Positions 6,149 to 63,834 of a DNA stretch of 64,000 nucleotides are shown one piece after another. Below the pieces are notes generated by a model that saw only the letters and a list, made by a program, of their open reading frames with translations, ran no database searches and was not told the DNA's origin. The stretch's first letter is position 1. Every line of letters starts with the position of its first letter. Origin of the DNA: a virus (taxonomy: Duplodnaviria; Heunggongvirae; Uroviricota; Caudoviricetes); IMG/VR virus record IMGVR_UViG_3300045988_145635. One strand, given 5' to 3'. A program made the translations under genes and the position numbers.

Positions 6149-7834
6149 ATGAATACAGCTCTTTCCATCATCGACGATGCCAACTCAAACACTGCTATCG
6201 ATTATCGTCAGGAAATGAACGTCATCCACGAAATTGTGGCCGAGTGCGAGAAGGAGATCGCCTTCATGTATCAGGTTCACGACTTCGTTTATGGAGACGA
6301 ACGCCACAACATGATTAATCGCCTGCTGCAACTGAACCACCGACCAGATGAAGAACGCTCACGTTTGAATCGAGCTTGGCTGGATAAAGTCGATCTGGAA
6401 TGGGTGAAACAGAATATTTGGGCCGAGTACTGGAGGAAGGTCACGGATATGACTAACGTTCTGCTGATCATGCCAGCTTCCCGTCGCGACGAGTGGCGTG
6501 AGCAGTTTATCGAGGGTAAGCAGGAAGTCATCAAAACTGACAGAACCGGCTATCAGATGAAGGTAAAAGAGTTCGTTGGTGTACCGGAGTTCAAAGCAGA
6601 AACGGTCATACCCACGATGCTTAATTTGCTGAATGACAGGCACAAATATCTCTCTGAGCGCGTGTATGGCTTGTTTAAGGCGCTGAGTCCTGCGCACAAG
6701 ACAAATAAGACAAACGGTTTCAGCGAACGTCTGATAATCGCTGACTGCATTTCTGATTTCTGGCGGGACAGCGTTAGTGTGAACTATCGCAAAGAGGACT
6801 ATATCGACGATCTGCGTGTCTTGCTTCATTTCTTCGCGCACAAAGAATTTATTACCATCAACCGCACTGCTGAGGTGCTATCAGCTGCGTATCGGGCAAA
6901 CGACTGCCAGACCGGTGACTGGATGAACGTCGATGGAAATCTGATGCGCGTGAAGATGTTCAAGAACGGCAACGTTCACTTTGAAATACATCCTGACGTG
7001 GCCTGGAAGTTGAATGAGGTGCTGGCTTACAGTATGCCTGCTGCAATCCCCGCGCCATGTCGCACCGCGCCAAAAACACGGGCACCAAAGCAGTTCGGGT
7101 TAATCCAGAAGACGATCTCCGTGCCGGTTCGCACTGCGCTTCGTGACGGGCGATTGAGCAAAGACAAAGGCGTATGGTACTTCTCTGATTCAGCTCTCCA
7201 GAAGTCGCAGGTGGAAGAGCTTGAGCGCACACTGAGCTTCATTGGCGGCGTGCAGGAGAAAAAGCACTGGCAGTTCCCGTATGACATCGTCCATACGCTA
7301 AATACGATTGTGGCTACCGGTTTAATACCGGATACAAAATCACACCAGTTCTACCCTACCCCACGCTTGATTGCTGAGTACGTTGCCAGAGCCACTGAAT
7401 TGAAGCCTGGTGAGAAGCTGCTGGAGCCTCAAGCCGGACGTGGGGATCTTCTGGCCTATATTAACGCCGATCTGGAAGATGTTACCTGCATAGAAATCGC
7501 ACCTCTCTTCGCTGATATCCTGCGTGGAAAAGGGTATACGAACACGATTTGCTGCGACTTCATAAAGTGGTCTGAGGACAACGTAGGTTATCAGTTCGAC
7601 AAAATCGTTATGAACCCGCCGTATTCGCTTGGTCGTCATAGAGAGCACACGCTGGCTGCGCTGGGGCATCTGAAAGTCGGCGGGCGTCTTGTAGCAGTAT
7701 TGCCGGGCACTGCGCCAATACTGGACTGGATGACGATGGATAATTACGTTTATGCCAGAGGGAAGTCGTTTACCAACGAGTTTGAAGACACAGGGATCAC
7801 AGTCAGCGTATACGTTTTCAAACGCGTTAAATGA
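6149..7834 (+). CDS. DNA methyltransferase, gamma-class N6-adenine type, with ~340-aa N-terminal domain of unknown function
   Basis: C-terminal motifs in gamma order: FYPTP (motif X), LEPQAGRGDLL (motif I), IVMNPPYS (motif IV). Confidence 0.7.
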   Translation: MNTALSIIDDANSNTAIDYRQEMNVIHEIVAECEKEIAFMYQVHDFVYGDERHNMINRLLQLNHRPDEERSRLNRAWLDKVDLEWVKQNIWAEYWRKVTDMTNVLLIMPASRRDEWREQFIEGKQEVIKTDRTGYQMKVKEFVGVPEFKAETVIPTMLNLLNDRHKYLSERVYGLFKALSPAHKTNKTNGFSERLIIADCISDFWRDSVSVNYRKEDYIDDLRVLLHFFAHKEFITINRTAEVLSAAYRANDCQTGDWMNVDGNLMRVKMFKNGNVHFEIHPDVAWKLNEVLAYSMPAAIPAPCRTAPKTRAPKQFGLIQKTISVPVRTALRDGRLSKDKGVWYFSDSALQKSQVEELERTLSFIGGVQEKKHWQFPYDIVHTLNTIVATGLIPDTKSHQFYPTPRLIAEYVARATELKPGEKLLEPQAGRGDLLAYINADLEDVTCIEIAPLFADILRGKGYTNTICCDFIKWSEDNVGYQFDKIVMNPPYSLGRHREHTLAALGHLKVGGRLVAVLPGTAPILDWMTMDNYVYARGKSFTNEFEDTGITVSVYVFKRVK

Positions 7835-55190: not shown

Positions 55191-58100
55191 ATGTGGTACA
55201 GGGAAGGTACTATCACATTTACACAGGGTAGCAATACTCTGGTTGGGGCAGGGACAGCCTGGAACGTAACAGCTAATGGTGTGTTGCCGGGGATGATCGT
55301 CATTGGCCCCGACAATAAGCTGTATGAGATCAAGCGCGTAATAAGCGATACGAATATTGTTCTCTCAGAACCTTATACCGGCGAAACTCAGTCTGAGGTT
55401 CCGTGCCGAATCATTACGACCTATGAAGGCGACTTAACACAGTTTAGCGCGCGCTTTACAGCACTAATGTCGCGTATGTCGGCTGATTCCAAGTCTATGC
55501 GCAGTTGGTTGACTGCTCTGGATGAGGTGACAATCGAGCGTGAAGACGGTACAGAAGTAACCGTTAAGCCGCTAATGCAGATCGTCAACGAGCACAACGA
55601 AAACGTTGAGTGGTATAAAAATAACACTGACGCGATTGATGCTGCTGGCGACAAAGCTCGTGAGGCAGCGGCCAGTGCTGCCGCAGCAGCAGAAAGCGCC
55701 AATACCGCTGGAGAAAAAGCCTCTCAAGCGTCTCAAAGTGCATCCGCTGCGGCATCCTCACAAAGTGCCGCAAGTGCGAGTGCAACTGCTGCGAAAAAAT
55801 CTGAAACGAATGCCGCAGCGTCACAACAATCAGCAGCCACTTCTGCATCCACCGCGACCACGAAAGCGTCAGAAGCTGCCACCTCAGCCCGGGATGCGGC
55901 GGCCTCAAAAGAGGCAGCGAAATCATCAGAAACGAGCGCAGCCTCGAGCGCCAGTAATGCCGCTTCCTCGGCAACGGCGGCAGGAAATTCCGCGAAGGCG
56001 GCAAAAACGTCCGAGACGAACGCCAGGTCTTCTGAAACGGCAGCGGGACAGAGCGCCTCGGCTGCGGCAGGCTCAAAAACAGCGGCTGCGTCGTCTGCCA
56101 GTGCCGCGTCAACAAGTGCCGGGCAGGCCTCAGCCAGTGCCACCGCCGCCGGAAAATCGGCAGAAAGTGCCGCATCGTCTGCTTCAACAGCCACAACGAA
56201 GGCTGGCGAAGCCACTGAACAGGCCAGCGCAGCAGCGAGGTCTGCTTCCGCAGCGAAGACATCCGAAACGAACGCGAAAGCGTCGGAAACCCGTGCAGAA
56301 TCCTCAAAAACGGCAGCCGCATCGTCCGCCAGTTCGGCAGCGTCATCGGCATCATCTGCGTCTGCTTCAAAAGATGAGGCGACCAGACAGGCGTCAGCAG
56401 CGAAGGGCAGCGCCACGACGGCATACACGAAAGCAACAGAGGCGGCAGGCAGTGCGACGGCAGCATCTCAGAGCAAAACTGCTGCTGAATCCGCTGCGAC
56501 CCGTGCGGAAGCTGCTGCTGATCGTGCTGAAGAGATTGCCGGTGCAGTTGCGATGGAAGACGCAAGCCTTACAACTAAAGGTGTTGTGAAACTTAGCAGT
56601 GCTGTCGACAGCACCAGTGAATCGCTGGCCGCAACGCCAAAAGCAGTTAAAGTAGTCAATGACAATGCGAACAGCAGGGTGCCATCTAACCGAAAAATTA
56701 ACGGGAAAGCACTGACTGCGGATATCACATTAACGCCGAAAGATATTGGTACTTTAAATTCAATAACGATGTCTTTCTCTGGCGGGGCCGGGTGGTTCAA
56801 ACTGGCTACTGTTACAATGCCACAAGCGAGTTCCATCGTTTACATCGCATTGATTGGTGGCGCTGGTTACAACGTCGGCTCCCCACATCAGGCAGGCATT
56901 TCAGAACTGGTTCTACGAGCAGGCAATGGAAACCCCAAAGGGATTACAGGTGCTTTGTGGAAGCGTACAGCTGTCGGATTAACGAATTTCGCCTGGATCA
57001 ACACATCCGGCGATACATATGATATTTACGTTGAGATTGGCAATTATGCGACTCGTGTAAATATCCATTGGGATTGTACTGCAAATGCGACAGTTTCTAT
57101 TTATACATCGCCAACATATTCAGCTAGTAAGCCTTCCAGCGTTACCGATGGTGTTGTTTATACGATGTATAGCACACATCAGAAACCGACGCCGTTAGAT
57201 ATTGGAGCACTGCCAACAACCGGAGGAACAGTTTCAGGTCCGTTGTCTGTTACTGGTGGGATCACCGGAACATTAAATGGTAATGCAAGTACAGCAACGA
57301 AATTGCAGACGGCAAGATCTATCGGTGGAGTTGGTTTCGACGGTTCTGCAAATATCAACCTTCCAGGTGTAAATACTACGGGTAATCAGAACACCACTGG
57401 TAATGCTGCAACTGCTACAAAACTTCAGACGGCAAGAACTATCGGCGGCGTGAGCTTTGATGGTACTGCGAATATTAATTTGCCAGGTGTTAATACGACT
57501 GGTAATCAGAATACAACGGGCAACGCGGCTACTGCTACGAAGTTGCAGACTGCGCGTACTATCAATGGGGTGTCGTTTGACGGCTCGGCAAATATTTCCT
57601 TGTCGCCAACAAATATAGGTTGCCCGGCATCTCCTACTGGTTGGTTAACTACAGGAAGTAATGGCGGAGCAATAACAACAGCACAGTTAGTGACGTTATT
57701 GCAAAATAATGGTGCTTTTAATGCAAAGGCATGGATAGCGCGTTGTGCTTGGGCGTATGCAAATAGTGCATCCATACCAGACAGCGAAACAGGATGCGGC
57801 ATTATTCCACTGGCTGGCGCAGTTATTGAGGTATTTAATAACGGTAGTAGCTCAAACAATTATACGATCCGCATAACAACGGCCACAACGACAAGTGTTT
57901 CCGGTGCTCTCACTAATGCGGAGTTTATCTATGTATTTAACGGGACGAGCTATTCACCAGGATGGCGCAGAGCGTATAACACTAAAAACAAGCCTACTGC
58001 GGCTGATGTCGGAGCTTTACCACTATCTGGAGGAGCGTTAACTGGCGGATTAACGTCTTCTGGTGAGATCGTTTCAAAATATGCAAATGGTTTCCGCATT

Positions 58101-59216
58101 GCTTACGGTAGCTTTGGGTTCTTTATCCGTAATGATGGATCGAACACATATTTCATGCTAACAGCATCAGGAAACACATTAGGTTCATGGAACGGTTTGC
58201 GACCTATTACAATTAATAATACCAGCGGTGCTGTGTCCATTGGTAATGGACTAAATGTTACTGGTGGCGTAAATGGTAGTTTGAACGGTAATGCTTCAAC
58301 AGCTACGAAGTTGCAAACTGCTAGAAAAATAAGCGGCGTGTCTTTTGATGGTTCTGCTGATATAACACTAACAGCTGCAAATGTATCTGCTTTTGCTCGA
58401 CGCGCTACTGGAACTTATGCCGATACTAGTGGTGCGGTCCCGTGGAATGCCGAATCAGGTGCGTATAATGTTACACGCTCCAGGGATTCTTATATCGTTG
58501 CAAATTTTTATATAGGCGTAGGTAGTTGTCGGACTCTCCAAATCCGAGCGCATTATAAAAATGGTGGATTGTATTACCGTTCATCACGTGATGGCTATGG
58601 GTTCGAAGAGGACTGGACTCAGATATATACTAAAAAAGACAGCATCCCAGGTGTGAATGCAGATGGGAACCAGAACACTACTGGTAATGCTGCCACCGCC
58701 ACAAAATTGCAGACAGCAAGGAAAATTGCTGGTGTGGCGTTTGATGGCTCTGCCGATATTACTTTGACTGCGGCTAACCTTAATGCTTATACGAAAACAG
58801 AGGTAACGAATCTTCTAAGTTCCTATGTGAAGAGCAGTGCTCTTCCAAGCATGACTGTGCGAACTTCCTCTATTTCAGGTGGGGATATGGGCATGAGTTT
58901 GTCCACATTCATTAGCCACCTTAAATCAAATGGGGCGTTTAGCAAAAGATATTGGATTGGCTTTGGCGATGCTATGGGATTCAATGCTGGCAGTATCAAC
59001 AATATAACGGGATTTGGTGCTGTAGAATTAGCAGAATCTATAATCGAAGTTTTTAATCTACCTAACGGTGATTATACAATTCGTTTAACAACGTCACATA
59101 AAGCTGATTACGGTGGAGTGACAAACGCAATCCTCGTTTATCACTACCGCAGTAATAGAAGTCCGTCAGGTCAATGGCTGAAATTTGCCGGTACTGTTGG
59201 GGCAACAAGTAACTGA
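55191..59216 (+). CDS. Side tail fibre protein
   Basis: Ala/Ser-rich low-complexity region followed by repeated GNASTATKLQTAR.IGGV.FDGSANI phage-fibre repeats. Confidence 0.75.
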   Translation: MWYREGTITFTQGSNTLVGAGTAWNVTANGVLPGMIVIGPDNKLYEIKRVISDTNIVLSEPYTGETQSEVPCRIITTYEGDLTQFSARFTALMSRMSADSKSMRSWLTALDEVTIEREDGTEVTVKPLMQIVNEHNENVEWYKNNTDAIDAAGDKAREAAASAAAAAESANTAGEKASQASQSASAAASSQSAASASATAAKKSETNAAASQQSAATSASTATTKASEAATSARDAAASKEAAKSSETSAASSASNAASSATAAGNSAKAAKTSETNARSSETAAGQSASAAAGSKTAAASSASAASTSAGQASASATAAGKSAESAASSASTATTKAGEATEQASAAARSASAAKTSETNAKASETRAESSKTAAASSASSAASSASSASASKDEATRQASAAKGSATTAYTKATEAAGSATAASQSKTAAESAATRAEAAADRAEEIAGAVAMEDASLTTKGVVKLSSAVDSTSESLAATPKAVKVVNDNANSRVPSNRKINGKALTADITLTPKDIGTLNSITMSFSGGAGWFKLATVTMPQASSIVYIALIGGAGYNVGSPHQAGISELVLRAGNGNPKGITGALWKRTAVGLTNFAWINTSGDTYDIYVEIGNYATRVNIHWDCTANATVSIYTSPTYSASKPSSVTDGVVYTMYSTHQKPTPLDIGALPTTGGTVSGPLSVTGGITGTLNGNASTATKLQTARSIGGVGFDGSANINLPGVNTTGNQNTTGNAATATKLQTARTIGGVSFDGTANINLPGVNTTGNQNTTGNAATATKLQTARTINGVSFDGSANISLSPTNIGCPASPTGWLTTGSNGGAITTAQLVTLLQNNGAFNAKAWIARCAWAYANSASIPDSETGCGIIPLAGAVIEVFNNGSSSNNYTIRITTATTTSVSGALTNAEFIYVFNGTSYSPGWRRAYNTKNKPTAADVGALPLSGGALTGGLTSSGEIVSKYANGFRIAYGSFGFFIRNDGSNTYFMLTASGNTLGSWNGLRPITINNTSGAVSIGNGLNVTGGVNGSLNGNASTATKLQTARKISGVSFDGSADITLTAANVSAFARRATGTYADTSGAVPWNAESGAYNVTRSRDSYIVANFYIGVGSCRTLQIRAHYKNGGLYYRSSRDGYGFEEDWTQIYTKKDSIPGVNADGNQNTTGNAATATKLQTARKIAGVAFDGSADITLTAANLNAYTKTEVTNLLSSYVKSSALPSMTVRTSSISGGDMGMSLSTFISHLKSNGAFSKRYWIGFGDAMGFNAGSINNITGFGAVELAESIIEVFNLPNGDYTIRLTTSHKADYGGVTNAILVYHYRSNRSPSGQWLKFAGTVGATSN

Positions 59217-59418
59217 TTTAGACATTATTTATATGGCTGTGAGGTTTAAAATGCGATCTCACAGCCGCAATCATAGGGATATATTAGTGAGTTACTAGAT
59301 ACGAATTTGAACAGCCGTTAAACGGTATATACATAGATAGGTAAGTACACACCTACAACAAAAGGGTGAAATGTGATATAAATCCGCCATCCCGATTTGA
59401 CTTTTCATGGAGGAAAAC

Positions 59419-59742
59419 ATGTCGAACGAGATGGCGGGCGTTACAACAGAGCAAGTTGAGCGTATTGCCGCGATCGTTGCTCGGGAGGTTGTTGGTAAAT
59501 TAGGTAAAGAGCTACGTGAAGAAATTGGCCAGGAGGTCAATGATCAGCTGAAAACCTACTTTGGTGATATGACCCCGGCGCAACATAGTATTCAACACTC
59601 CAATCTGGACAAACTCCTTAACCGGTTAGATTCCATCTCCAGTGGGTTCTTTGGCGGCATTGTTTCTAAAATAACGTCGTTCATTATTACTGCACTGCTT
59701 TTGGGGTTAGCCGCGTATGGCGTAAAAAATGGACTGCAATAA
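59419..59742 (+). CDS. Holin-like protein (single C-terminal TM segment)
   Basis: GGAGG RBS; C-terminal ITSFIITALLLGLAAYGV; first gene of the lysis block. Confidence 0.45.
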   Translation: MSNEMAGVTTEQVERIAAIVAREVVGKLGKELREEIGQEVNDQLKTYFGDMTPAQHSIQHSNLDKLLNRLDSISSGFFGGIVSKITSFIITALLLGLAAYGVKNGLQ

Positions 59743-59755
59743 CAGGAGATCAAGG

Positions 59756-60448
59756 ATGAAGACTCCGAGAGGCATTCGTAATAATAACCCCGGTAATCTT
59801 GATAAAGGATCACCGTGGCAAGGTCTGGTTGCGAATCCAGACGAACCGCGCTTTTGCACGTTTAAAGACCCTGTTTGGGGGATTCGTGCGCTGGCGGTGA
59901 CTCTAATTACCTACCACGACAAACGTCGCGCAAAAGACGGCTCAAGTATCGATACCATTCGTGAAGTTATTGAACGCTGGGCACCGCCGAATGAAAATAA
60001 TACTGACGCCTACATTAATGAGGTGTCTAAAGCCGTTGGTGTAACCGCAGACATGATCATCGATCTGCATGATTACGACATCCTTCGACCTTTGGTTGAG
60101 GCAATCATTCGCCACGAGAATGGCCGAGGCCCGCTAAAAACGCTGAACACCTGGTATGCGGCAGAAGTTATTGAGGAAGGTCTGCGTCGAGCTGGCGTTG
60201 TTAAGCCGGTGAAAACCGTGAAGGCTGTTCCTGTAACTAAAGAAACCGCAGGCGCAACTGTTACAGCAGGTATTGGTCTGGCGCAGCTGGCCGATGTTAT
60301 GCCGCAGGTTTCCGCTGCTATGGATAAAGCACAAGGTCATATCTCTAGCGGGGATACAGTACGCATCATCTTCGGCATTGCCACTATTTTTGTGGCCGGA
60401 TTCATTGCCTGGTCGCAGGTAAGAAGACACCAGAAAGGGATGGTCTAA
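59756..60448 (+). CDS. Putative endolysin / cell-wall hydrolase-like protein with C-terminal TM anchor
   Basis: Position between holin-like and spanin genes; AGGAG RBS; catalytic family not recognised (RNNNPGNL motif). Confidence 0.4.
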   Translation: MKTPRGIRNNNPGNLDKGSPWQGLVANPDEPRFCTFKDPVWGIRALAVTLITYHDKRRAKDGSSIDTIREVIERWAPPNENNTDAYINEVSKAVGVTADMIIDLHDYDILRPLVEAIIRHENGRGPLKTLNTWYAAEVIEEGLRRAGVVKPVKTVKAVPVTKETAGATVTAGIGLAQLADVMPQVSAAMDKAQGHISSGDTVRIIFGIATIFVAGFIAWSQVRRHQKGMV

Positions 60449-60449
60449 T

Positions 60450-60701
60450 ATGCTAGGCAGCCTGATGACAAAGCTAAAAGTTGCTTTGATTACGCTGGCT
60501 GCCGTTCTTTTCGTTCTGGTCGGCGCTTACACGATGGGCGGAAATGCGGCGCGACGAGCAATGGAAGAGAAGGCAAAACAGGAAGACAGAAAACGACTTC
60601 AAAACACAGTGAAAGTGGTGAATGAGACGAGCAGTAAAATACGTCAGAAAGATGCTTCTGCCGTTCATCGTGAGTTGTATGATAAGTGGGTGCGTCATTA
60701 A
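60450..60701 (+). CDS. i-spanin (Rz-like)
   Basis: N-terminal TM (VALITLAAVLFVLVGAY) plus charged periplasmic region; typical size. Confidence 0.65.
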   Translation: MLGSLMTKLKVALITLAAVLFVLVGAYTMGGNAARRAMEEKAKQEDRKRLQNTVKVVNETSSKIRQKDASAVHRELYDKWVRH

Positions 60702-60837
60702 ACCACAAACAGCCAGCGTGTTGTTCTGCGATGGGGCTGAGCCTATCTATATCAGCAATAATGATGTAATGACTGAAGAAACCGAACGCCAAATCCTTTT
60801 TCACAATACGATGGGAGAGAGGGTTTGTGGTTGGTGA
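60652..60837 (+). CDS. o-spanin (Rz1-like lipoprotein), overlapping the i-spanin gene in the +1 frame
   Basis: MLLPFIVSCMISGC lipobox; starts inside the Rz-like gene. Confidence 0.55.
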   Translation: MLLPFIVSCMISGCVIKPQTASVLFCDGAEPIYISNNDVMTEETERQILFHNTMGERVCGW

Positions 60838-60869
60838 TGTCGAAGTTCCCCTCAAATGAGGGGAACACA

Positions 60870-61391
60870 TTATTCTTCGAACAATTTTTCGATAGATTTT
60901 GTAGGATAGAACAAAGAACGCTCGTTGTTACCAACCAGCTGGATAAAGCCTAAACTTTTATAAAACGCCTTGGCTTTGTCATTTAACGCCTCAACGAAAA
61001 GTCCATGAATGCCTACAGCAAGAGATGCATTGTACACAACGCGCATTGCATGTGTTACAAGCATTGAGCCAAATCCTTGACCTTGAAGGGACTTGTCCAA
61101 AGCCAGCCTACCCAAAGTAACACTTGGAACATTCCGATAAGGAACCTTCTTTTGTTTGCTTCTTGAAGGTAAGGACTCCTTTTCAAAACAACTACCTGAC
61201 AAAGTGTAATATCCTAACACTTTTGGCCTTTCTTCTTGAGTGCAAAGCACATAAGCACGAAGAATTTTTCCCTCATGCTGCCTTTTTAAGTGGTTGGCTA
61301 AAAAGGCGTTTAGTGACTCTTCGCCGCAATCAAAACCGTTTAGATCATAATCTTTCTCTCCAGAGAAAATCTCTATCGTTGTATTGCTCAC
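60870..61391 (-). CDS. GNAT-family acetyltransferase toxin (TacT/AtaT/ItaT-like)
   Basis: 173 aa; GNAT core (QGQGFGSMLV); paired with an upstream DUF1778-type gene. Confidence 0.7.
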   Translation of the reverse strand: MSNTTIEIFSGEKDYDLNGFDCGEESLNAFLANHLKRQHEGKILRAYVLCTQEERPKVLGYYTLSGSCFEKESLPSRSKQKKVPYRNVPSVTLGRLALDKSLQGQGFGSMLVTHAMRVVYNASLAVGIHGLFVEALNDKAKAFYKSLGFIQLVGNNERSLFYPTKSIEKLFEE

Positions 61392-61398
61392 GAGTAAA

Positions 61399-61668
61399 CT
61401 ACTCCATGCTTTTCAGACGATCAGCAGCTCGTTTCAGCTTGTCGTTCGGTGCCGGAGGATTGCTTATAGCGTCCATAACCAGATTCCAGGACTCTTCACT
61501 CAGAACCAGTCTTCGATGTTGCTCTATAACTTTCACGGCACGTTCAGATGCACTGCTAACCATAAACTGAGTAATGCTCTGGTTAGACATTGCGGCAGCT
61601 TCCTCGATGATGCTTTTATCGTCATCGGTTAATCTCAAATCGATGCGCTGCTTTTTTAGTGCTGACAT
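61399..61668 (-). CDS. DUF1778-type RHH antitoxin (TacA-like)
   Basis: ~89 aa from the AGGAGG-preceded ATG; immediately upstream of the GNAT gene on the same strand. Confidence 0.65.
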   Translation of the reverse strand: MSALKKQRIDLRLTDDDKSIIEEAAAMSNQSITQFMVSSASERAVKVIEQHRRLVLSEESWNLVMDAISNPPAPNDKLKRAADRLKSME

Positions 61669-61934
61669 GTATTCCTCCTGATGGCCGTGATGTAGGAAGG
61701 CCATCAATCTCCTCTGTTCAAACTGAGTTTTCGACTCAAAAATTACTTTAAAAGGCTATAGCCCATTACGTGTGCATTATCAAATTGTGTACGGCATATC
61801 ACCGTACTTGTAATATAGAGGTCATTGTTACTTTTTTCAACAGACAAATACAAGCTATGATTGCCAATTGTTAATCACAACCTACCATTTAACCTTTACA
61901 CCGCAGCCGTAGGCATTTAGGCTATATCACATAT

Positions 61935-61986: not shown

Positions 61987-62655
61987 ATGACCAAGATCTT
62001 TGTGGTTGGCGGCACAAAGGGCGGGCCTGGCAAATCCACCGTTGCCCAGCAAATTGCCGTTTGCCTTAAAGTCAAAAAGAAGAAGAAGGTTTATATCACT
62101 GATATAGATATTCAGCGCACGACAACAAGCTGGTGTGAAGACCGTCGACAGAACGAAGACCTTGAGCTGATTCCTTTTGCATACGTTCAGGATGACATCA
62201 TTAAGCACCTAAAATCGCTTCAGGGTAGAGCTGAGTATGTAGTGGTAGATGCTGGTGGCTTTGACTCCGAAATTCAGCGACAAGCGATGCTGATGGCCGA
62301 CGTTATCATTATCCCGCTTCGTCCTAAGCGTCGTGATTTGAAATCTCTGCGTGACATTGATCCTATTATCGACAATGTTCGTAATGTAAACGATAAAGTG
62401 AAGGTCCGCGCGGTCATGAACCAGTGCCCGGCTTTGCCATCACAAGTGTCTCGCATTCTGGCGGCTAAAGAGATTGTTGAGACGTTTGGCATCGAGTCTG
62501 CGCCAGTCAATCTATATAACCGCAACGTCTATGATGATGCGGAAGAGTCTGGTCGTTCTATCTTTGAAATGACCGGTAGCGAGCGCGACAAAAAGGCGGA
62601 AGCCGAGTTTGAAGAATTTGTAGATTATCTGTTGAGTCTGGAGGAAAAAGAATAA
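61987..62655 (+). CDS. ParA/ParF-type partition ATPase
   Basis: Deviant Walker A GGTKGGPGKST; 222 aa. Confidence 0.8.
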   Translation: MTKIFVVGGTKGGPGKSTVAQQIAVCLKVKKKKKVYITDIDIQRTTTSWCEDRRQNEDLELIPFAYVQDDIIKHLKSLQGRAEYVVVDAGGFDSEIQRQAMLMADVIIIPLRPKRRDLKSLRDIDPIIDNVRNVNDKVKVRAVMNQCPALPSQVSRILAAKEIVETFGIESAPVNLYNRNVYDDAEESGRSIFEMTGSERDKKAEAEFEEFVDYLLSLEEKE

Positions 62656-63014
62656 TGTCCATGAAAATGGGTGACCTAGCAAAGCGCAAAGAGCCTGATG
62701 CACCGGCTAAGAACACAACTCCTTTGCGCCAACCAGTCAGACCACAGGGACGCCCGACTCGTGGCAAAGAGAAAATTAAAAGCCGCACAATGTCACTGGA
62801 GGACGAATACTTCGAACTGCTGGAGATGATGAAGTTCATCCCTCGCTTCGAGAAGTTCACTCGTTCTGACGTGATTCGTGCTGCTATTTTCCATCTTGCG
62901 GAGAAGACACCGCAGGAAATCGAGGACATCGTGAAACTTAACGAGGCGATCACCGCTGCCGATGTCACGATGCGTACCGATGAAATCAAACGAGAGTTGA
63001 TGAAGAAAGGTTAA
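62655..63014 (+). CDS. Small RHH-type centromere-binding protein (ParG-like)
   Basis: TAATG-coupled to the ParA-like gene; basic N-terminal tail plus C-terminal beta-alpha-alpha pattern. Confidence 0.55.
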   Translation: MSMKMGDLAKRKEPDAPAKNTTPLRQPVRPQGRPTRGKEKIKSRTMSLEDEYFELLEMMKFIPRFEKFTRSDVIRAAIFHLAEKTPQEIEDIVKLNEAITAADVTMRTDEIKRELMKKG

Positions 63015-63066: not shown

Positions 63067-63834
63067 TTATGCCGCGCTAACACTATGTTCAGTCCTAACC
63101 ACCCCAACCTTCACAAAAGGGCTACCGTAGCTTGGTGGCTTCTTGATTAATTTGCCTACATACAGTTTTCTAATATGCTCATCGGCTATTCTGCCAACAA
63201 ATTCATAACGTTTTGTGTCGGGGCCAAGAGCTATATCCCTTGTAAAGTACTGCTGAGAACCGGCTTTGACCCAGCATTCAATCTGATAAACTTCCATTAT
63301 CAGCCCACCATATGTAGCGTAGGCATATTTGAGATTCTCGTCTCTTGGAACCTTTGCCCATACGCCACGCGTAGCTTCATATAATGCCAGAGCGGACATT
63401 CCTGACTTGTAGGTGCTGTTTAGCAGGAAGGCAAGACCGGCGTGCTCAGGAGCAATTTCAGTTTCCTCTTGCAGCACTAAGTGATGGTAGGCGTCCAGTG
63501 ATATTCTGCCCATCATGGAACCACTTCCTCGTACCTTATTCGTAAGCTCTCCGACCCCCATAAGGTCGATGCATGTCGCCTCAACAAGTTTGGCTGTGGT
63601 TTCATCCATACCATGACGAAGTATATCTATGCCTAATTTTTTATTAGCCAAAAGTTCTTTGATCCGCATGGATTTGGGAGAGTCATCGGGATACTTGATG
63701 TGATCGAGACAACGAGTCGATTTGCCTTTTCCTATGTAAAACGGTCTTTTCATCTTGTCTTCTGTATCATAGAGACAGTAAACATAGTATTTAGCCTTAT
63801 CCAATGATCTCGCGTATACCGATAAATCGTCCAT
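63067..63834 (-). CDS. GIY-YIG nuclease-domain protein with uncharacterised C-terminal domain
   Basis: N-terminal YYVYCLYD ... PFYIGKGKSTRCLDH fits the GIY / YIG / R / H pattern. Confidence 0.55.
   Translation of the reverse strand: MDDLSVYARSLDKAKYYVYCLYDTEDKMKRPFYIGKGKSTRCLDHIKYPDDSPKSMRIKELLANKKLGIDILRHGMDETTAKLVEATCIDLMGVGELTNKVRGSGSMMGRISLDAYHHLVLQEETEIAPEHAGLAFLLNSTYKSGMSALALYEATRGVWAKVPRDENLKYAYATYGGLIMEVYQIECWVKAGSQQYFTRDIALGPDTKRYEFVGRIADEHIRKLYVGKLIKKPPSYGSPFVKVGVVRTEHSVSAA

Follow-up and report, generated by a model that had tools for sequence, protein, structure and literature searches.

Endolysins that carry their membrane anchor at the C-terminus were first noted as an architecture in phage Siskin in 2019, and an N-in, loop-out, C-in topology was predicted for the Siskin protein (PMC6498227). 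For ORF39 of the Hafnia phage Enc34 the catalytic domain was solved (PDB 7Q47; Cernooka et al. 2022, PMC8943055). This domain lyses E. coli, P. aeruginosa and H. alvei cells with a permeabilized outer membrane and the full-length protein is toxic; according to the same paper, the architecture is restricted to Chivirus and its relatives. M4Lys of the Salmonella phage BSPM4 lyses E. coli by itself and azide does not block the lysis (Bai et al. 2020, PMC7143992). Removal of its membrane domain abolished lysis, the membrane domain alone was bacteriostatic, and muropeptide analysis indicated N-acetylglucosaminidase activity. Co-expression of the chi-like ORF_37, which is unrelated to the holin candidate described below, made M4Lys-mediated lysis slightly slower rather than faster. 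The Phobius and Phyre2 predictions reported in that study placed the N-terminal domain of M4Lys in the periplasm (N-out, C-in). In the alignments presented here, the chi-like M4Lys type is represented by lysis protein A of iEPS5, a member of the same phage group.

The window analyzed here is a 64,000-nucleotide stretch of tailed-phage DNA (IMG/VR record IMGVR_UViG_3300045988_145635). A first-pass annotation made from the letters had marked a lysis cassette made up of a holin-like gene, an enzyme candidate, an i-spanin and an o-spanin, and we recovered the four open reading frames in this order and at the coordinates it had given. The features of the locus are as follows.

59338..59406, + strand: upstream region, conserved with phage SSU5
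59419..59742, + strand: holin candidate, 107 aa, member of phrog_5093
59756..60448, + strand: endolysin of the Enc34/M4Lys type, 230 aa (PDB 7Q47, phrog_873, alignments, hydropathy)
59756-60208, + strand: catalytic domain, residues 1-151 (homology to the Enc34 endolysin domain)
59777-59800, + strand: RNNNPGNL motif (R8 to L15) at the N-terminus of the enzyme
60116-60118, + strand: putative catalytic Glu121, aligned with Enc34 Glu131
between catalytic domain and H1, + strand: lysine-rich linker (endolysin sequence)
60245-60322, + strand: helix H1, weakly hydrophobic, residues 164-189 (19-residue hydropathy 1.11)
between H1 and TM2, + strand: acidic loop (charge)
60356-60418, + strand: transmembrane helix TM2, residues 201-221 (hydropathy 2.0, 19-residue peak at residues 204-222)
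after TM2, + strand: basic tail RRHQKGMV, net charge +3
60450..60701, + strand: i-spanin (Rz-like), 83 aa, phrog_1026 'Rz-like spanin', E 7e-25
60622..60837, + strand: o-spanin (Rz1-like lipoprotein), 71 aa, +1 frame, phrog_1275, E 1.3e-24
60845..60866, no strand assigned: hairpin with a 9-bp GC-rich stem, GTTCCCCTC-AAAT-GAGGGGAAC

The locus is very probably the late lysis cassette of an SSU5-like siphovirus phage-plasmid with an endolysin of the Enc34/M4Lys type. It is 99.4% identical to phage Cyrano over 1,601 nt and 81.6% identical to phage SSU5, and the element is, judged by its sequence, nearly identical to Cyrano/pLF82. Cyrano is the phage-plasmid pLF82 of E. coli LF82; its free virions have been quantified, and a siphovirus particle that matches it has been observed (PMC9928086), in a paper that does not discuss the lysis genes. 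The annotation of Cyrano names these genes holin, endolysin, Rz and Rz1; for SSU5, the RefSeq record labels the counterpart of the 230-aa gene 'endolysin' and the gene upstream of it 'putative holin'. A tail-fibre gene directly precedes the cassette. The matches to PHROG profiles and the mostly synonymous codon changes of the first two genes relative to SSU5, the phage with which the window genes were compared for all codon counts given below, indicate that the open reading frames are not chance, and these two genes are under purifying selection. The cassette is thus real but already known: this type of enzyme has been published together with its structure and its unusual C-terminal membrane domain, and so has the spanin pair.

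The enzyme had been described in the first-pass annotation as unrecognised, a description that does not hold. Its full-length identity to Enc34 ORF39 and to iEPS5 lysis protein A is 57-58%; the value is 62-64% for the catalytic domain and 45-50% for the linker plus membrane domain. A phmmer search against the PDB retrieved 7Q47_A ('Endolysin') with an E-value of 2.6e-54, enzyme residues 3-151 aligning with chain residues 6-168, and the PHROG family phrog_873 ('endolysin') matched with an E-value of 2.4e-87. Since the catalytic domain is 64% identical to that of Enc34 ORF39, for which the structure is solved, the fold is settled. On this homology the domain is an all-helical glycosidase of the provisional family PHA02564, a distant relative of the alpha-lobe of the GH73/GH23 lysozyme fold, and by analogy with Enc34 its groove carries a Glu as general acid and is lined by Trp and Tyr. 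The corresponding residues W75, Y86 and E121 (Enc34 Trp79, Tyr95 and Glu131; residue numbers in the Enc34 paper are the Met-inclusive numbers minus one) are invariant in nine aligned sequences from Escherichia, Salmonella, Hafnia, Serratia, Erwinia, Providencia, Proteus and Aeromonas phages. Codon changes relative to SSU5 comprise 96 synonymous and 14 non-synonymous ones. The start at 59756 is preceded by AGGAG and agrees with the N-termini of the homologues. A longer version starting at ATG 59729 was rejected, as it has no Shine-Dalgarno sequence and overlaps the holin gene, and the homologues begin at the position equivalent to MKTPRG.

The remark that the enzyme does not match the classical lysozyme, amidase and peptidase families was sound, and scans against Pfam and NCBIfam likewise gave no significant match. 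Because the catalytic domain lacks a model in Pfam and NCBIfam, RefSeq lists the enzyme as 'hypothetical' in about 400 plasmid records and in 250 of the 5,426 complete E. coli genomes; its neighbors are likewise 'hypothetical'. This annotation gap exists in spite of the crystal structure. As a discovery the cassette adds little; in the records of near-identical phages the genes are already correctly named.

In its layout the window enzyme shares with Enc34 ORF39 the helical catalytic domain, the basic linker, the two-helix membrane domain, the RNNNPGN motif and the groove residues Glu, Trp and Tyr; M4Lys has the same domain layout (57-58% identity measured to chi-like iEPS5). As in Enc34 and Smarc5, the endolysin gene lies between a gene for a small membrane protein and the spanin genes. 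Unlike Enc34 ORF39, the window enzyme has no KKNGV and SPEDYD insertions and its linker is 5 residues longer; the host element is an SSU5-like phage-plasmid and not a member of the Casjensviridae. The architecture is not confined to chi-like Casjensviridae but is also standard in SSU5-like phage-plasmids, a distribution wider than published, and in the latter it is combined with an unrelated small membrane protein. This natural exchange of partners provides a useful comparison for how such endolysins cross the inner membrane.

Both the RNNNPGNL motif and the C-terminal hydrophobic segment pointed out earlier are present in the 230-aa open reading frame, and the suggestion of a membrane-tethered hydrolase is supported by the homology to Enc34/M4Lys and by the predicted C-terminal membrane domain. 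H1 is rich in Gly, Ala, Ser and Thr (54%), includes Asp, Gln and Pro, and is of marginal hydrophobicity. Among the nine homologues the best 19-residue mean ranges from 1.1 to 1.6 for H1 and from 1.6 to 2.2 for TM2, and the charge is +1 to +3 in the linker, -1 to -3 in the loop and 0 to +3 in the tail. With 32 synonymous and 6 non-synonymous changes relative to SSU5, the membrane domain shows a degree of constraint equal to that of the catalytic domain. By the positive-inside rule, the charge pattern suggests an N-in, loop-out, C-in arrangement in which the catalytic domain would start in the cytoplasm. The published M4Lys predictions are contrary to this arrangement, and H1 is only marginally hydrophobic.

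The i-spanin has an N-terminal transmembrane helix at about residues 9-29 (19-residue hydropathy 2.38 at residues 11-29), followed by a short, highly charged periplasmic part, and contains no cysteine. It is 75% identical to the SSU5 protein and 26% identical to Enc34 ORF40. The o-spanin carries a basic N-terminal region followed by the lipobox ISGC at residues 21-24 (60682-60693), the signal reading MRRAVKYVRKMLLPFIVSCM-ISGC-V with Val and not Asp at position +2. The mature protein has 48 aa with the conserved cysteines Cys36 and Cys69; identity is 72% to the SSU5 protein and 45% to Enc34 ORF41, and C24, C36 and C69 are invariant. Pfam and NCBIfam scans gave sub-threshold noise only for the i-spanin and no significant match for the o-spanin. 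The first-pass annotation had read the o-spanin as embedded in the Rz-like gene. Its lipobox and its +1 frame were correctly placed, but only the first 80 nt of the gene (60622-60701) lie within the 3' end of the i-spanin gene, and the other 136 nt extend beyond the stop codon of the latter, which makes the pair overlapped rather than embedded. This arrangement, with an N-terminal transmembrane helix in the i-spanin and an o-spanin lipoprotein started in the +1 frame, resembles the P2 LysB/LysC type and Enc34. Unlike the P2 LysB/LysC-type overlapped spanins, the window pair is very short (83 aa for the i-spanin and 48 aa for the mature o-spanin) and its i-spanin is free of Cys. An intermolecular disulfide of the Rz-Rz1 type would therefore be impossible, and only bonds within an o-spanin homodimer or intramolecular bonds could form. 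The SSU5 spanin pair was already included in the 2018 catalogue of Kongari et al. (PMC6139136), where the o-spanin shares the 'Chi' family with those of Enc34 and iEPS5, whereas the i-spanin is listed as a singleton family.

We propose the following course of events. The endolysin would enter the inner membrane as a hairpin whose two ends both remain cytoplasmic, which would keep its catalytic domain on the cytoplasmic surface of this membrane and apart from the wall. At the time of lysis a membrane lesion would give the tethered enzyme access to the peptidoglycan; this lesion could come from the upstream single-pass protein, from the holin-like membrane domain of the endolysin itself, or from both. 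The short i-spanin/o-spanin pair would then disrupt the outer membrane. By analogy with the 57-58% identical homologues, the window enzyme is likely to degrade the wall and to depend on its membrane domain for lysis. The hairpin topology, the source of the lesion and the role of the upstream gene are the parts of this scheme that we infer.

The 107-aa protein encoded upstream is a holin candidate, a name taken over from the annotation of Cyrano and SSU5. Holins usually have a highly charged, hydrophilic C-terminal tail, and the first place in a lysis cassette is the usual holin position. The protein is small, has one transmembrane segment and adjoins the endolysin gene; its C-terminal tail, however, is not of the charged type. 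The single hydrophobic segment lies at the C-terminus (residues 81-99, Kyte-Doolittle 19-residue mean 2.02; transmembrane segment about residues 81-103) and is followed by the 8 residues YGVKNGLQ with one Lys, while the hydrophilic domain sits on the N-terminal side. These N-terminal ~80 residues are hydrophilic and helical and include the invariant motif F48-G49...H56-x3-H60 (FG-x6-H-x3-H). A GGAGG Shine-Dalgarno sequence stands 5 nt before the start at 59419, and the stop codon lies 13 nt before the start of the endolysin gene. An upstream ATG at 59407 was rejected as start, as it has no ribosome-binding site and the GGAGG serves 59419. AlphaFold2 modeled the protein as two long helices (pLDDT 84, pTM 0.36), a two-helix model of the kind for which fold searches give meaningless matches.

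Scans against Pfam and NCBIfam gave no significant match for the holin candidate and no characterized holin family, its sole family match being phrog_5093 of PHROG ('unknown function'), a family of about 56 clusters at 50% identity. When the window protein and two diverged members were used in tblastn against GenBank phages, only the same 12 SSU5-like records were returned. An alignment-based search for related loci recovered only near-identical SSU5-like contigs, and single diverged phrog_5093 proteins gave no matches in IMG/VR. Distant relatives (25-31% identical) open other lysis cassettes on the metagenomic contigs L085, L087 and L089, where the phrog_5093 gene precedes genes for an endolysin of the Peptidase_M15_3 type and an Rz-like spanin; this recurrence across endolysin types is drawn from a small sample of four loci.

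The candidate resembles the chi-like 'class IV' holin candidate (Siskin, Enc34 ORF38, BSPM4 ORF_37) in its size of about 110 aa, its one transmembrane segment, its hydrophilic helical domain of ~70-80 residues that is probably cytoplasmic, and the position of its gene directly upstream of the same type of endolysin. The transmembrane segment is C-terminal in the window protein versus near the N-terminus in the chi-like holin, and the FG-x6-H-x3-H motif of the former is absent from the chi-like proteins. Remote or permuted homology between the two was rejected at an hhalign probability of 2.8%. Tentatively, phrog_5093 might represent a new lysis-timing class, namely a tail-anchored holin or antiholin with a large cytoplasmic domain that is partnered with a membrane-breaching endolysin hairpin. 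If this is true, the cassette of the SSU5-like elements could answer the question left by the Enc34 and M4Lys papers, namely how an endolysin anchored at its C-terminus gets to the wall. Published lysis or holin tests on SSU5-like phages were not found in our literature search.

Possibly, though we lean against it, the endolysin is instead self-sufficient, its C-terminal hairpin serving as a built-in holin and the phrog_5093 protein acting as an antiholin-like timing regulator or accessory lysis factor. Of the four diverged phrog_5093 cassettes examined, three additionally encode a small protein with two transmembrane segments, possibly the true holin, and phrog_5093 could therefore be an antiholin or regulator. 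The hairpin with its basic tail resembles the layout of class II holins, and the Aeromonas phage BUCT551 has the endolysin and Rz without a gene for a small membrane protein directly upstream. That M4Lys lyses alone, that its membrane domain is bacteriostatic and that co-expression of the upstream gene delays lysis slightly (PMC7143992) points in the same direction, but the lysis without partners was observed solely when M4Lys was strongly over-expressed from a T7 system, and it may be an artefact. The SSU5-like upstream gene, moreover, is under strong purifying selection (39 synonymous versus 4 non-synonymous changes relative to SSU5) and is always first in the cassette, which speaks against a self-sufficient endolysin.

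A less probable arrangement, and in our judgment an unlikely one, is that the catalytic domain is exported first and sits in the periplasm (N-out, C-in) with TM2 as the only anchor, restrained in the manner of SAR endolysins until an upstream pinholin depolarizes the membrane. The Enc34 authors raised this possibility (PMC8943055), and the published predictions for M4Lys as well as its lysis of cells without a co-expressed holin are in line with it (PMC7143992). With its weak hydrophobicity and its 54% of Gly, Ala, Ser and Thr, H1 also looks like a SAR segment that is free to leave the bilayer. The window enzyme shares with the SAR endolysins P1 Lyz and phage 21 R21 the membrane tether, a weakly hydrophobic Gly/Ala-rich helix and possible control by membrane energization. 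Unlike those enzymes, it has its anchor at the C-terminus, no Sec-type signal and a fold unrelated to the T4-lysozyme-like enzymes, and its enzyme domain is probably cytoplasmic before lysis. Export is disfavored by the lack of an N-terminal signal sequence, by the insensitivity of M4Lys lysis to azide, a Sec inhibitor (PMC7143992), and by the charges around H1, where a conserved basic linker on one side and an acidic loop on the other fit a cytoplasmic N-terminal side.

A role of the 230-aa protein in the virion, as a peptidoglycan hydrolase for DNA injection rather than an endolysin, is highly improbable: the catalytic domain does occur within large virion proteins such as T7-like internal virion proteins that carry an endolysin-domain annotation (gene 16, phage K1F), in 'virion protein' annotations, in tape-measure and tail-injection PHROG families and in PDB 9vvp chain L (Gp29, 1,295 aa; we found no literature on 9VVP), and PHROG files phrog_873 under 'head and packaging', but the window protein is small and stand-alone with a membrane hairpin, its gene lies between the holin candidate and the spanins and after the tail-fibre gene, full-length homologues lyse or poison cells from within (PMC8943055, PMC7143992), and no second endolysin candidate was seen in the cassette.

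At the flanks of the cassette, the similarity to SSU5 starts ~80 nt 5' of the start codon of the holin candidate, even though the genes further upstream differ in the alignment. This region (59338..59406) contains a short palindrome, TAGGT..ACCTA, at 59338-59355 and an extended -10-like sequence, TGATATAAA, at 59374-59382; it has no -35 match and the promoter scan made no call there. On these signals it may be the promoter or an operator of the cassette. On the other side, the hairpin at 60845..60866 is the sole terminator-like site in 59000-61100 (shuffles averaged 1.7), a count that is weak on its own, and is likely a terminator; it separates the cassette from a convergent GNAT-toxin gene.

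Four co-oriented, tightly packed ORFs occupy 59419-60837, directly 3' of the tail-fibre gene (55191-59216, 1,341 aa), and constitute the four-gene lysis cassette described in the first-pass annotation, except that its spanin genes are not embedded:

59419-59742, plus strand: holin candidate, 107 aa; GGAGG 5 nt upstream
59756-60448, plus strand: endolysin, 230 aa; AGGAG upstream; N-terminus MKTPRGIRNNNPGNL
60450-60701, plus strand: i-spanin, 83 aa; transmembrane segment at the N-terminus, remainder charged
60622-60837, plus strand, +1 frame: o-spanin, 71 aa; basic N-terminal region, hydrophobic core, lipobox ISGC, Val at +2
60845-60866: GC-rich hairpin, 9 bp, between the cassette and the convergent gene

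An ATG at 59407 was rejected as the start of the holin candidate, as it has no ribosome-binding site. The o-spanin gene shares its first 80 nt with the 3' end of the i-spanin gene, and its other 136 nt lie beyond the i-spanin stop, an architecture of the overlapped class. The earlier interpretation, in which a membrane-tethered hydrolase forms part of a lysis cassette, holds, but the hydrolase, then called unrecognised, belongs to a published and structurally solved endolysin type. It could not be placed at first reading because neither Pfam nor NCBIfam gives a match.

The enzyme matches phrog_873 'endolysin' (E 2.4e-87) and one solved structure, 7Q47 'Endolysin' (E 2.6e-54, enzyme residues 3-151), which is the catalytic domain of ORF39 from Hafnia phage Enc34 (Cernooka et al. 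2022, PMC8943055). The purified Enc34 domain lyses E. coli, P. aeruginosa and H. alvei with permeabilised outer membranes, full-length ORF39 is toxic to cells, and Glu131 was proposed as the catalytic residue, with Trp79 and Tyr95 conserved (PMC8943055). A second homologue, M4Lys of Salmonella phage BSPM4, lyses E. coli unaided; this lysis is not blocked by azide and is lost when the membrane domain is truncated, and M4Lys releases GlcNAc from muropeptides (Bai et al. 2020, PMC7143992). The architecture was first noted in phage Siskin in 2019. Alignments gave 57-58% identity between the enzyme and both Enc34 ORF39 and lysis protein A of the chi-like phage iEPS5 (62-64% in the catalytic domain, 45-50% in the linker and membrane domain). 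Residues W75, Y86 and E121 align with Enc34 Trp79, Tyr95 and Glu131 and are identical in all nine sequences compared, which come from phages with hosts in eight genera. As judged from these alignments, the enzyme is a full-length member of the Enc34/M4Lys endolysin type.

Towards its C-terminus, the enzyme has a helix H1 that is rich in Gly/Ala/Thr and weakly hydrophobic (residues 164-189, 19-residue Kyte-Doolittle mean 1.11). An acidic loop connects it to TM2, a clear transmembrane helix (residues 201-221, mean 2.0), after which the protein ends in the basic tail RRHQKGMV. Charge and hydropathy were compared across nine homologues:

Linker before H1: net charge +1 to +3
H1: marginally hydrophobic, 1.1-1.6
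Loop between the helices: net charge -1 to -3
TM2: clearly hydrophobic, 1.6-2.2
Tail: net charge 0 to +3

Because of the positive-inside rule, this charge pattern favours a hairpin with the N- and C-terminus both in the cytoplasm, in agreement with the prediction for Siskin but not with that for M4Lys (N-out). Before any breach of the membrane, the catalytic domain would be held on its cytoplasmic side. Codon changes relative to Salmonella phage SSU5 (32 synonymous and 6 non-synonymous in the membrane domain, 64 and 8 in the catalytic domain) indicate that the membrane domain is as constrained as the catalytic domain and is not a passive anchor. The upstream protein may cause the breach, or the hairpin may do so as a built-in holin, or both may act.

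The upstream 'holin' is the sole part of the cassette without a prior explanation. About 80 hydrophilic residues are followed by one strongly hydrophobic segment (residues 81-99, 19-residue Kyte-Doolittle mean 2.02) and just 8 further residues. In forced alignment, the protein is 17-22% identical to the chi-like holin of Enc34, iEPS5 and Siskin, but the two are unrelated (hhalign probability 2.8%) and their layouts are reversed, the chi-like holin having its transmembrane segment near the N-terminus. The only match was phrog_5093, 'unknown function'. When 1.84 billion representatives were searched exhaustively with HMMER, 56 clusters (50% identity) of this family were recovered, full-length members being nearly all 94-150 aa long. 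The 27 full-length members that were aligned all have this layout and the motif FGDMTPxQHxIQHxR (FG-x6-H-x3-H), in which G49, H56 and H60 are invariant and F48 nearly so. AlphaFold2, run with this alignment, predicted two long helices (residues 10-48 and 53-105, pLDDT 84), the second continuous from the His motif into the membrane segment. The gene differs from that of SSU5 by 39 synonymous and 4 non-synonymous codon changes, and among cultured-phage records it occurs in SSU5-like elements only. Four distant members, located on contigs from metagenomes or draft genomes, all lie directly after tail genes:

L085, 4001-4348: heads a lysis cassette; Peptidase_M15_3 endolysin (marginal match, E 2e-4, with HxxxxxxD...H signature), then Rz-like spanins
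L087, 4001-4393: heads a lysis cassette; Peptidase_M15_3 endolysin (E 9e-21), then Rz-like spanins
L089, 4001-4321: as L085, with the same marginal E-value and signature
L090, 4001-4333: followed by a small two-transmembrane protein, then the contig end

Since its members head cassettes with differing endolysins, phrog_5093 is, on gene order, a lysis-cassette family that pairs with varied endolysins in the manner of holins. The protein could still be an antiholin or regulator, because a further small two-transmembrane protein is present in three of the four distant cassettes and because in Aeromonas phage BUCT551 (L095, 1-1900) an Enc34-type endolysin gene precedes an Rz-like gene but is itself directly preceded, across a 53-nt gap, by a long ORF instead of a gene for a small membrane protein. 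The latter layout hints that an endolysin of this type might work without an adjacent holin. The SSU5-like cassette could help to explain both the exit of this endolysin type from the cell and the function of the phrog_5093 protein.

The catalytic domain was found by tblastn in 793 phage records, in 182 of which at least 80% of the protein was covered; the matches listed at this coverage are SSU5-like elements, Casjensviridae and a few unclassified records. In the remainder only the domain is present, as part of large virion proteins; among these are PDB 9vvp Gp29, proteins labelled 'virion protein' and internal virion proteins of the T7-like type for which an endolysin domain is annotated (gene 16, phage K1F). 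These records lend slight plausibility to an injection-stage enzyme, but this reading was rejected on the enzyme's size, its membrane hairpin, its place in the lysis cassette and what its homologues do.

Both spanins are unusually short (i-spanin 83 aa; o-spanin 48 aa when mature). The i-spanin is 26% identical to its Enc34 homologue and 75% to that of SSU5, the o-spanin 45% and 72%, respectively. The SSU5 o-spanin was placed in the 'Chi' family with those of Enc34 and iEPS5, and the SSU5 i-spanin is a singleton (Kongari et al. 2018, PMC6139136). Cysteine is absent from the i-spanin, as from Enc34 Rz, while the o-spanin has a conserved pair in its periplasmic part, Cys36 and Cys69, so that the disulfide between i-spanin and o-spanin known from lambda Rz-Rz1 cannot form in this pair.

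Over the 1.6 kb of the cassette region, identity is 99.4% to Escherichia phage Cyrano (OV696614) and 81.6% to SSU5. Cyrano is pLF82, a phage-plasmid carried by the adherent-invasive E. coli strain LF82; free Cyrano virions were quantified, and a siphovirus particle seen by electron microscopy was attributed to Cyrano (PMC9928086). Its record names the four genes Holin, Endolysin, Rz spanin and Rz1 spanin, and the SSU5 RefSeq record lists a putative holin, an endolysin and Rz-like spanins; with the enzyme type published as well, the cassette is already known. The Cyrano (L001) Rz1 CDS (7419-7538, window 60718-60837) encodes 39 aa and starts downstream of the lipobox, the usual start-site annotation error for o-spanins (Kongari et al. 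2018); the full o-spanin with signal peptide starts at 60622. The cassette is present in 408 PLSDB plasmid records and in 250 of 5,426 complete E. coli genomes, plasmid-borne in every case, where the enzyme and the adjacent gene products go under the RefSeq names 'hypothetical protein' or 'membrane protein'. This annotation gap remains because Pfam and NCBIfam have no model for the catalytic domain, despite the crystal structure 7Q47.

Similarity to SSU5 begins about 80 nt upstream of the cassette, though the upstream genes differ. The common stretch (59338-59406) contains a palindrome (TAGGT..ACCTA in the window, perfect TAGGTAAG/CTTACCTA in SSU5) and an extended -10-like TGATATAAA, and may be a late promoter or operator. 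The tail-fibre protein, which the Cyrano annotation relates by homology to the S tail-fibre protein of phage P1, has a low-complexity Ala/Ser/Thr-rich stretch of about 320 residues and several motif copies resembling NQNTTGNAATATKLQTAR-I-GV-FDG-A-I-L. The genes beyond the cassette are:

60870-61391, minus strand: GNAT acetyltransferase toxin
61399-61707, minus strand: TacA-type antitoxin (PF08681, E 4.8e-26)
61987-62655: ParA-type partition ATPase
62655-63014: 119-aa ORF, no Pfam match
63067-63834, minus strand: 255-aa ORF with an N-terminal GIY-YIG nuclease-like domain (PF22945 LEM-3_GIY-YIG, E 5.5e-7)

The first two form a TacT/TacA-like (KacT-like) pair (60870-61707) that is convergent with the lysis cassette and shares the hairpin at 60845-60866 with it. 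The 119-aa ORF is called 'RelE/ParE putative toxin' in the Cyrano record; judged by its position after the ParA-type ATPase, it could instead be a ParB-like partner.
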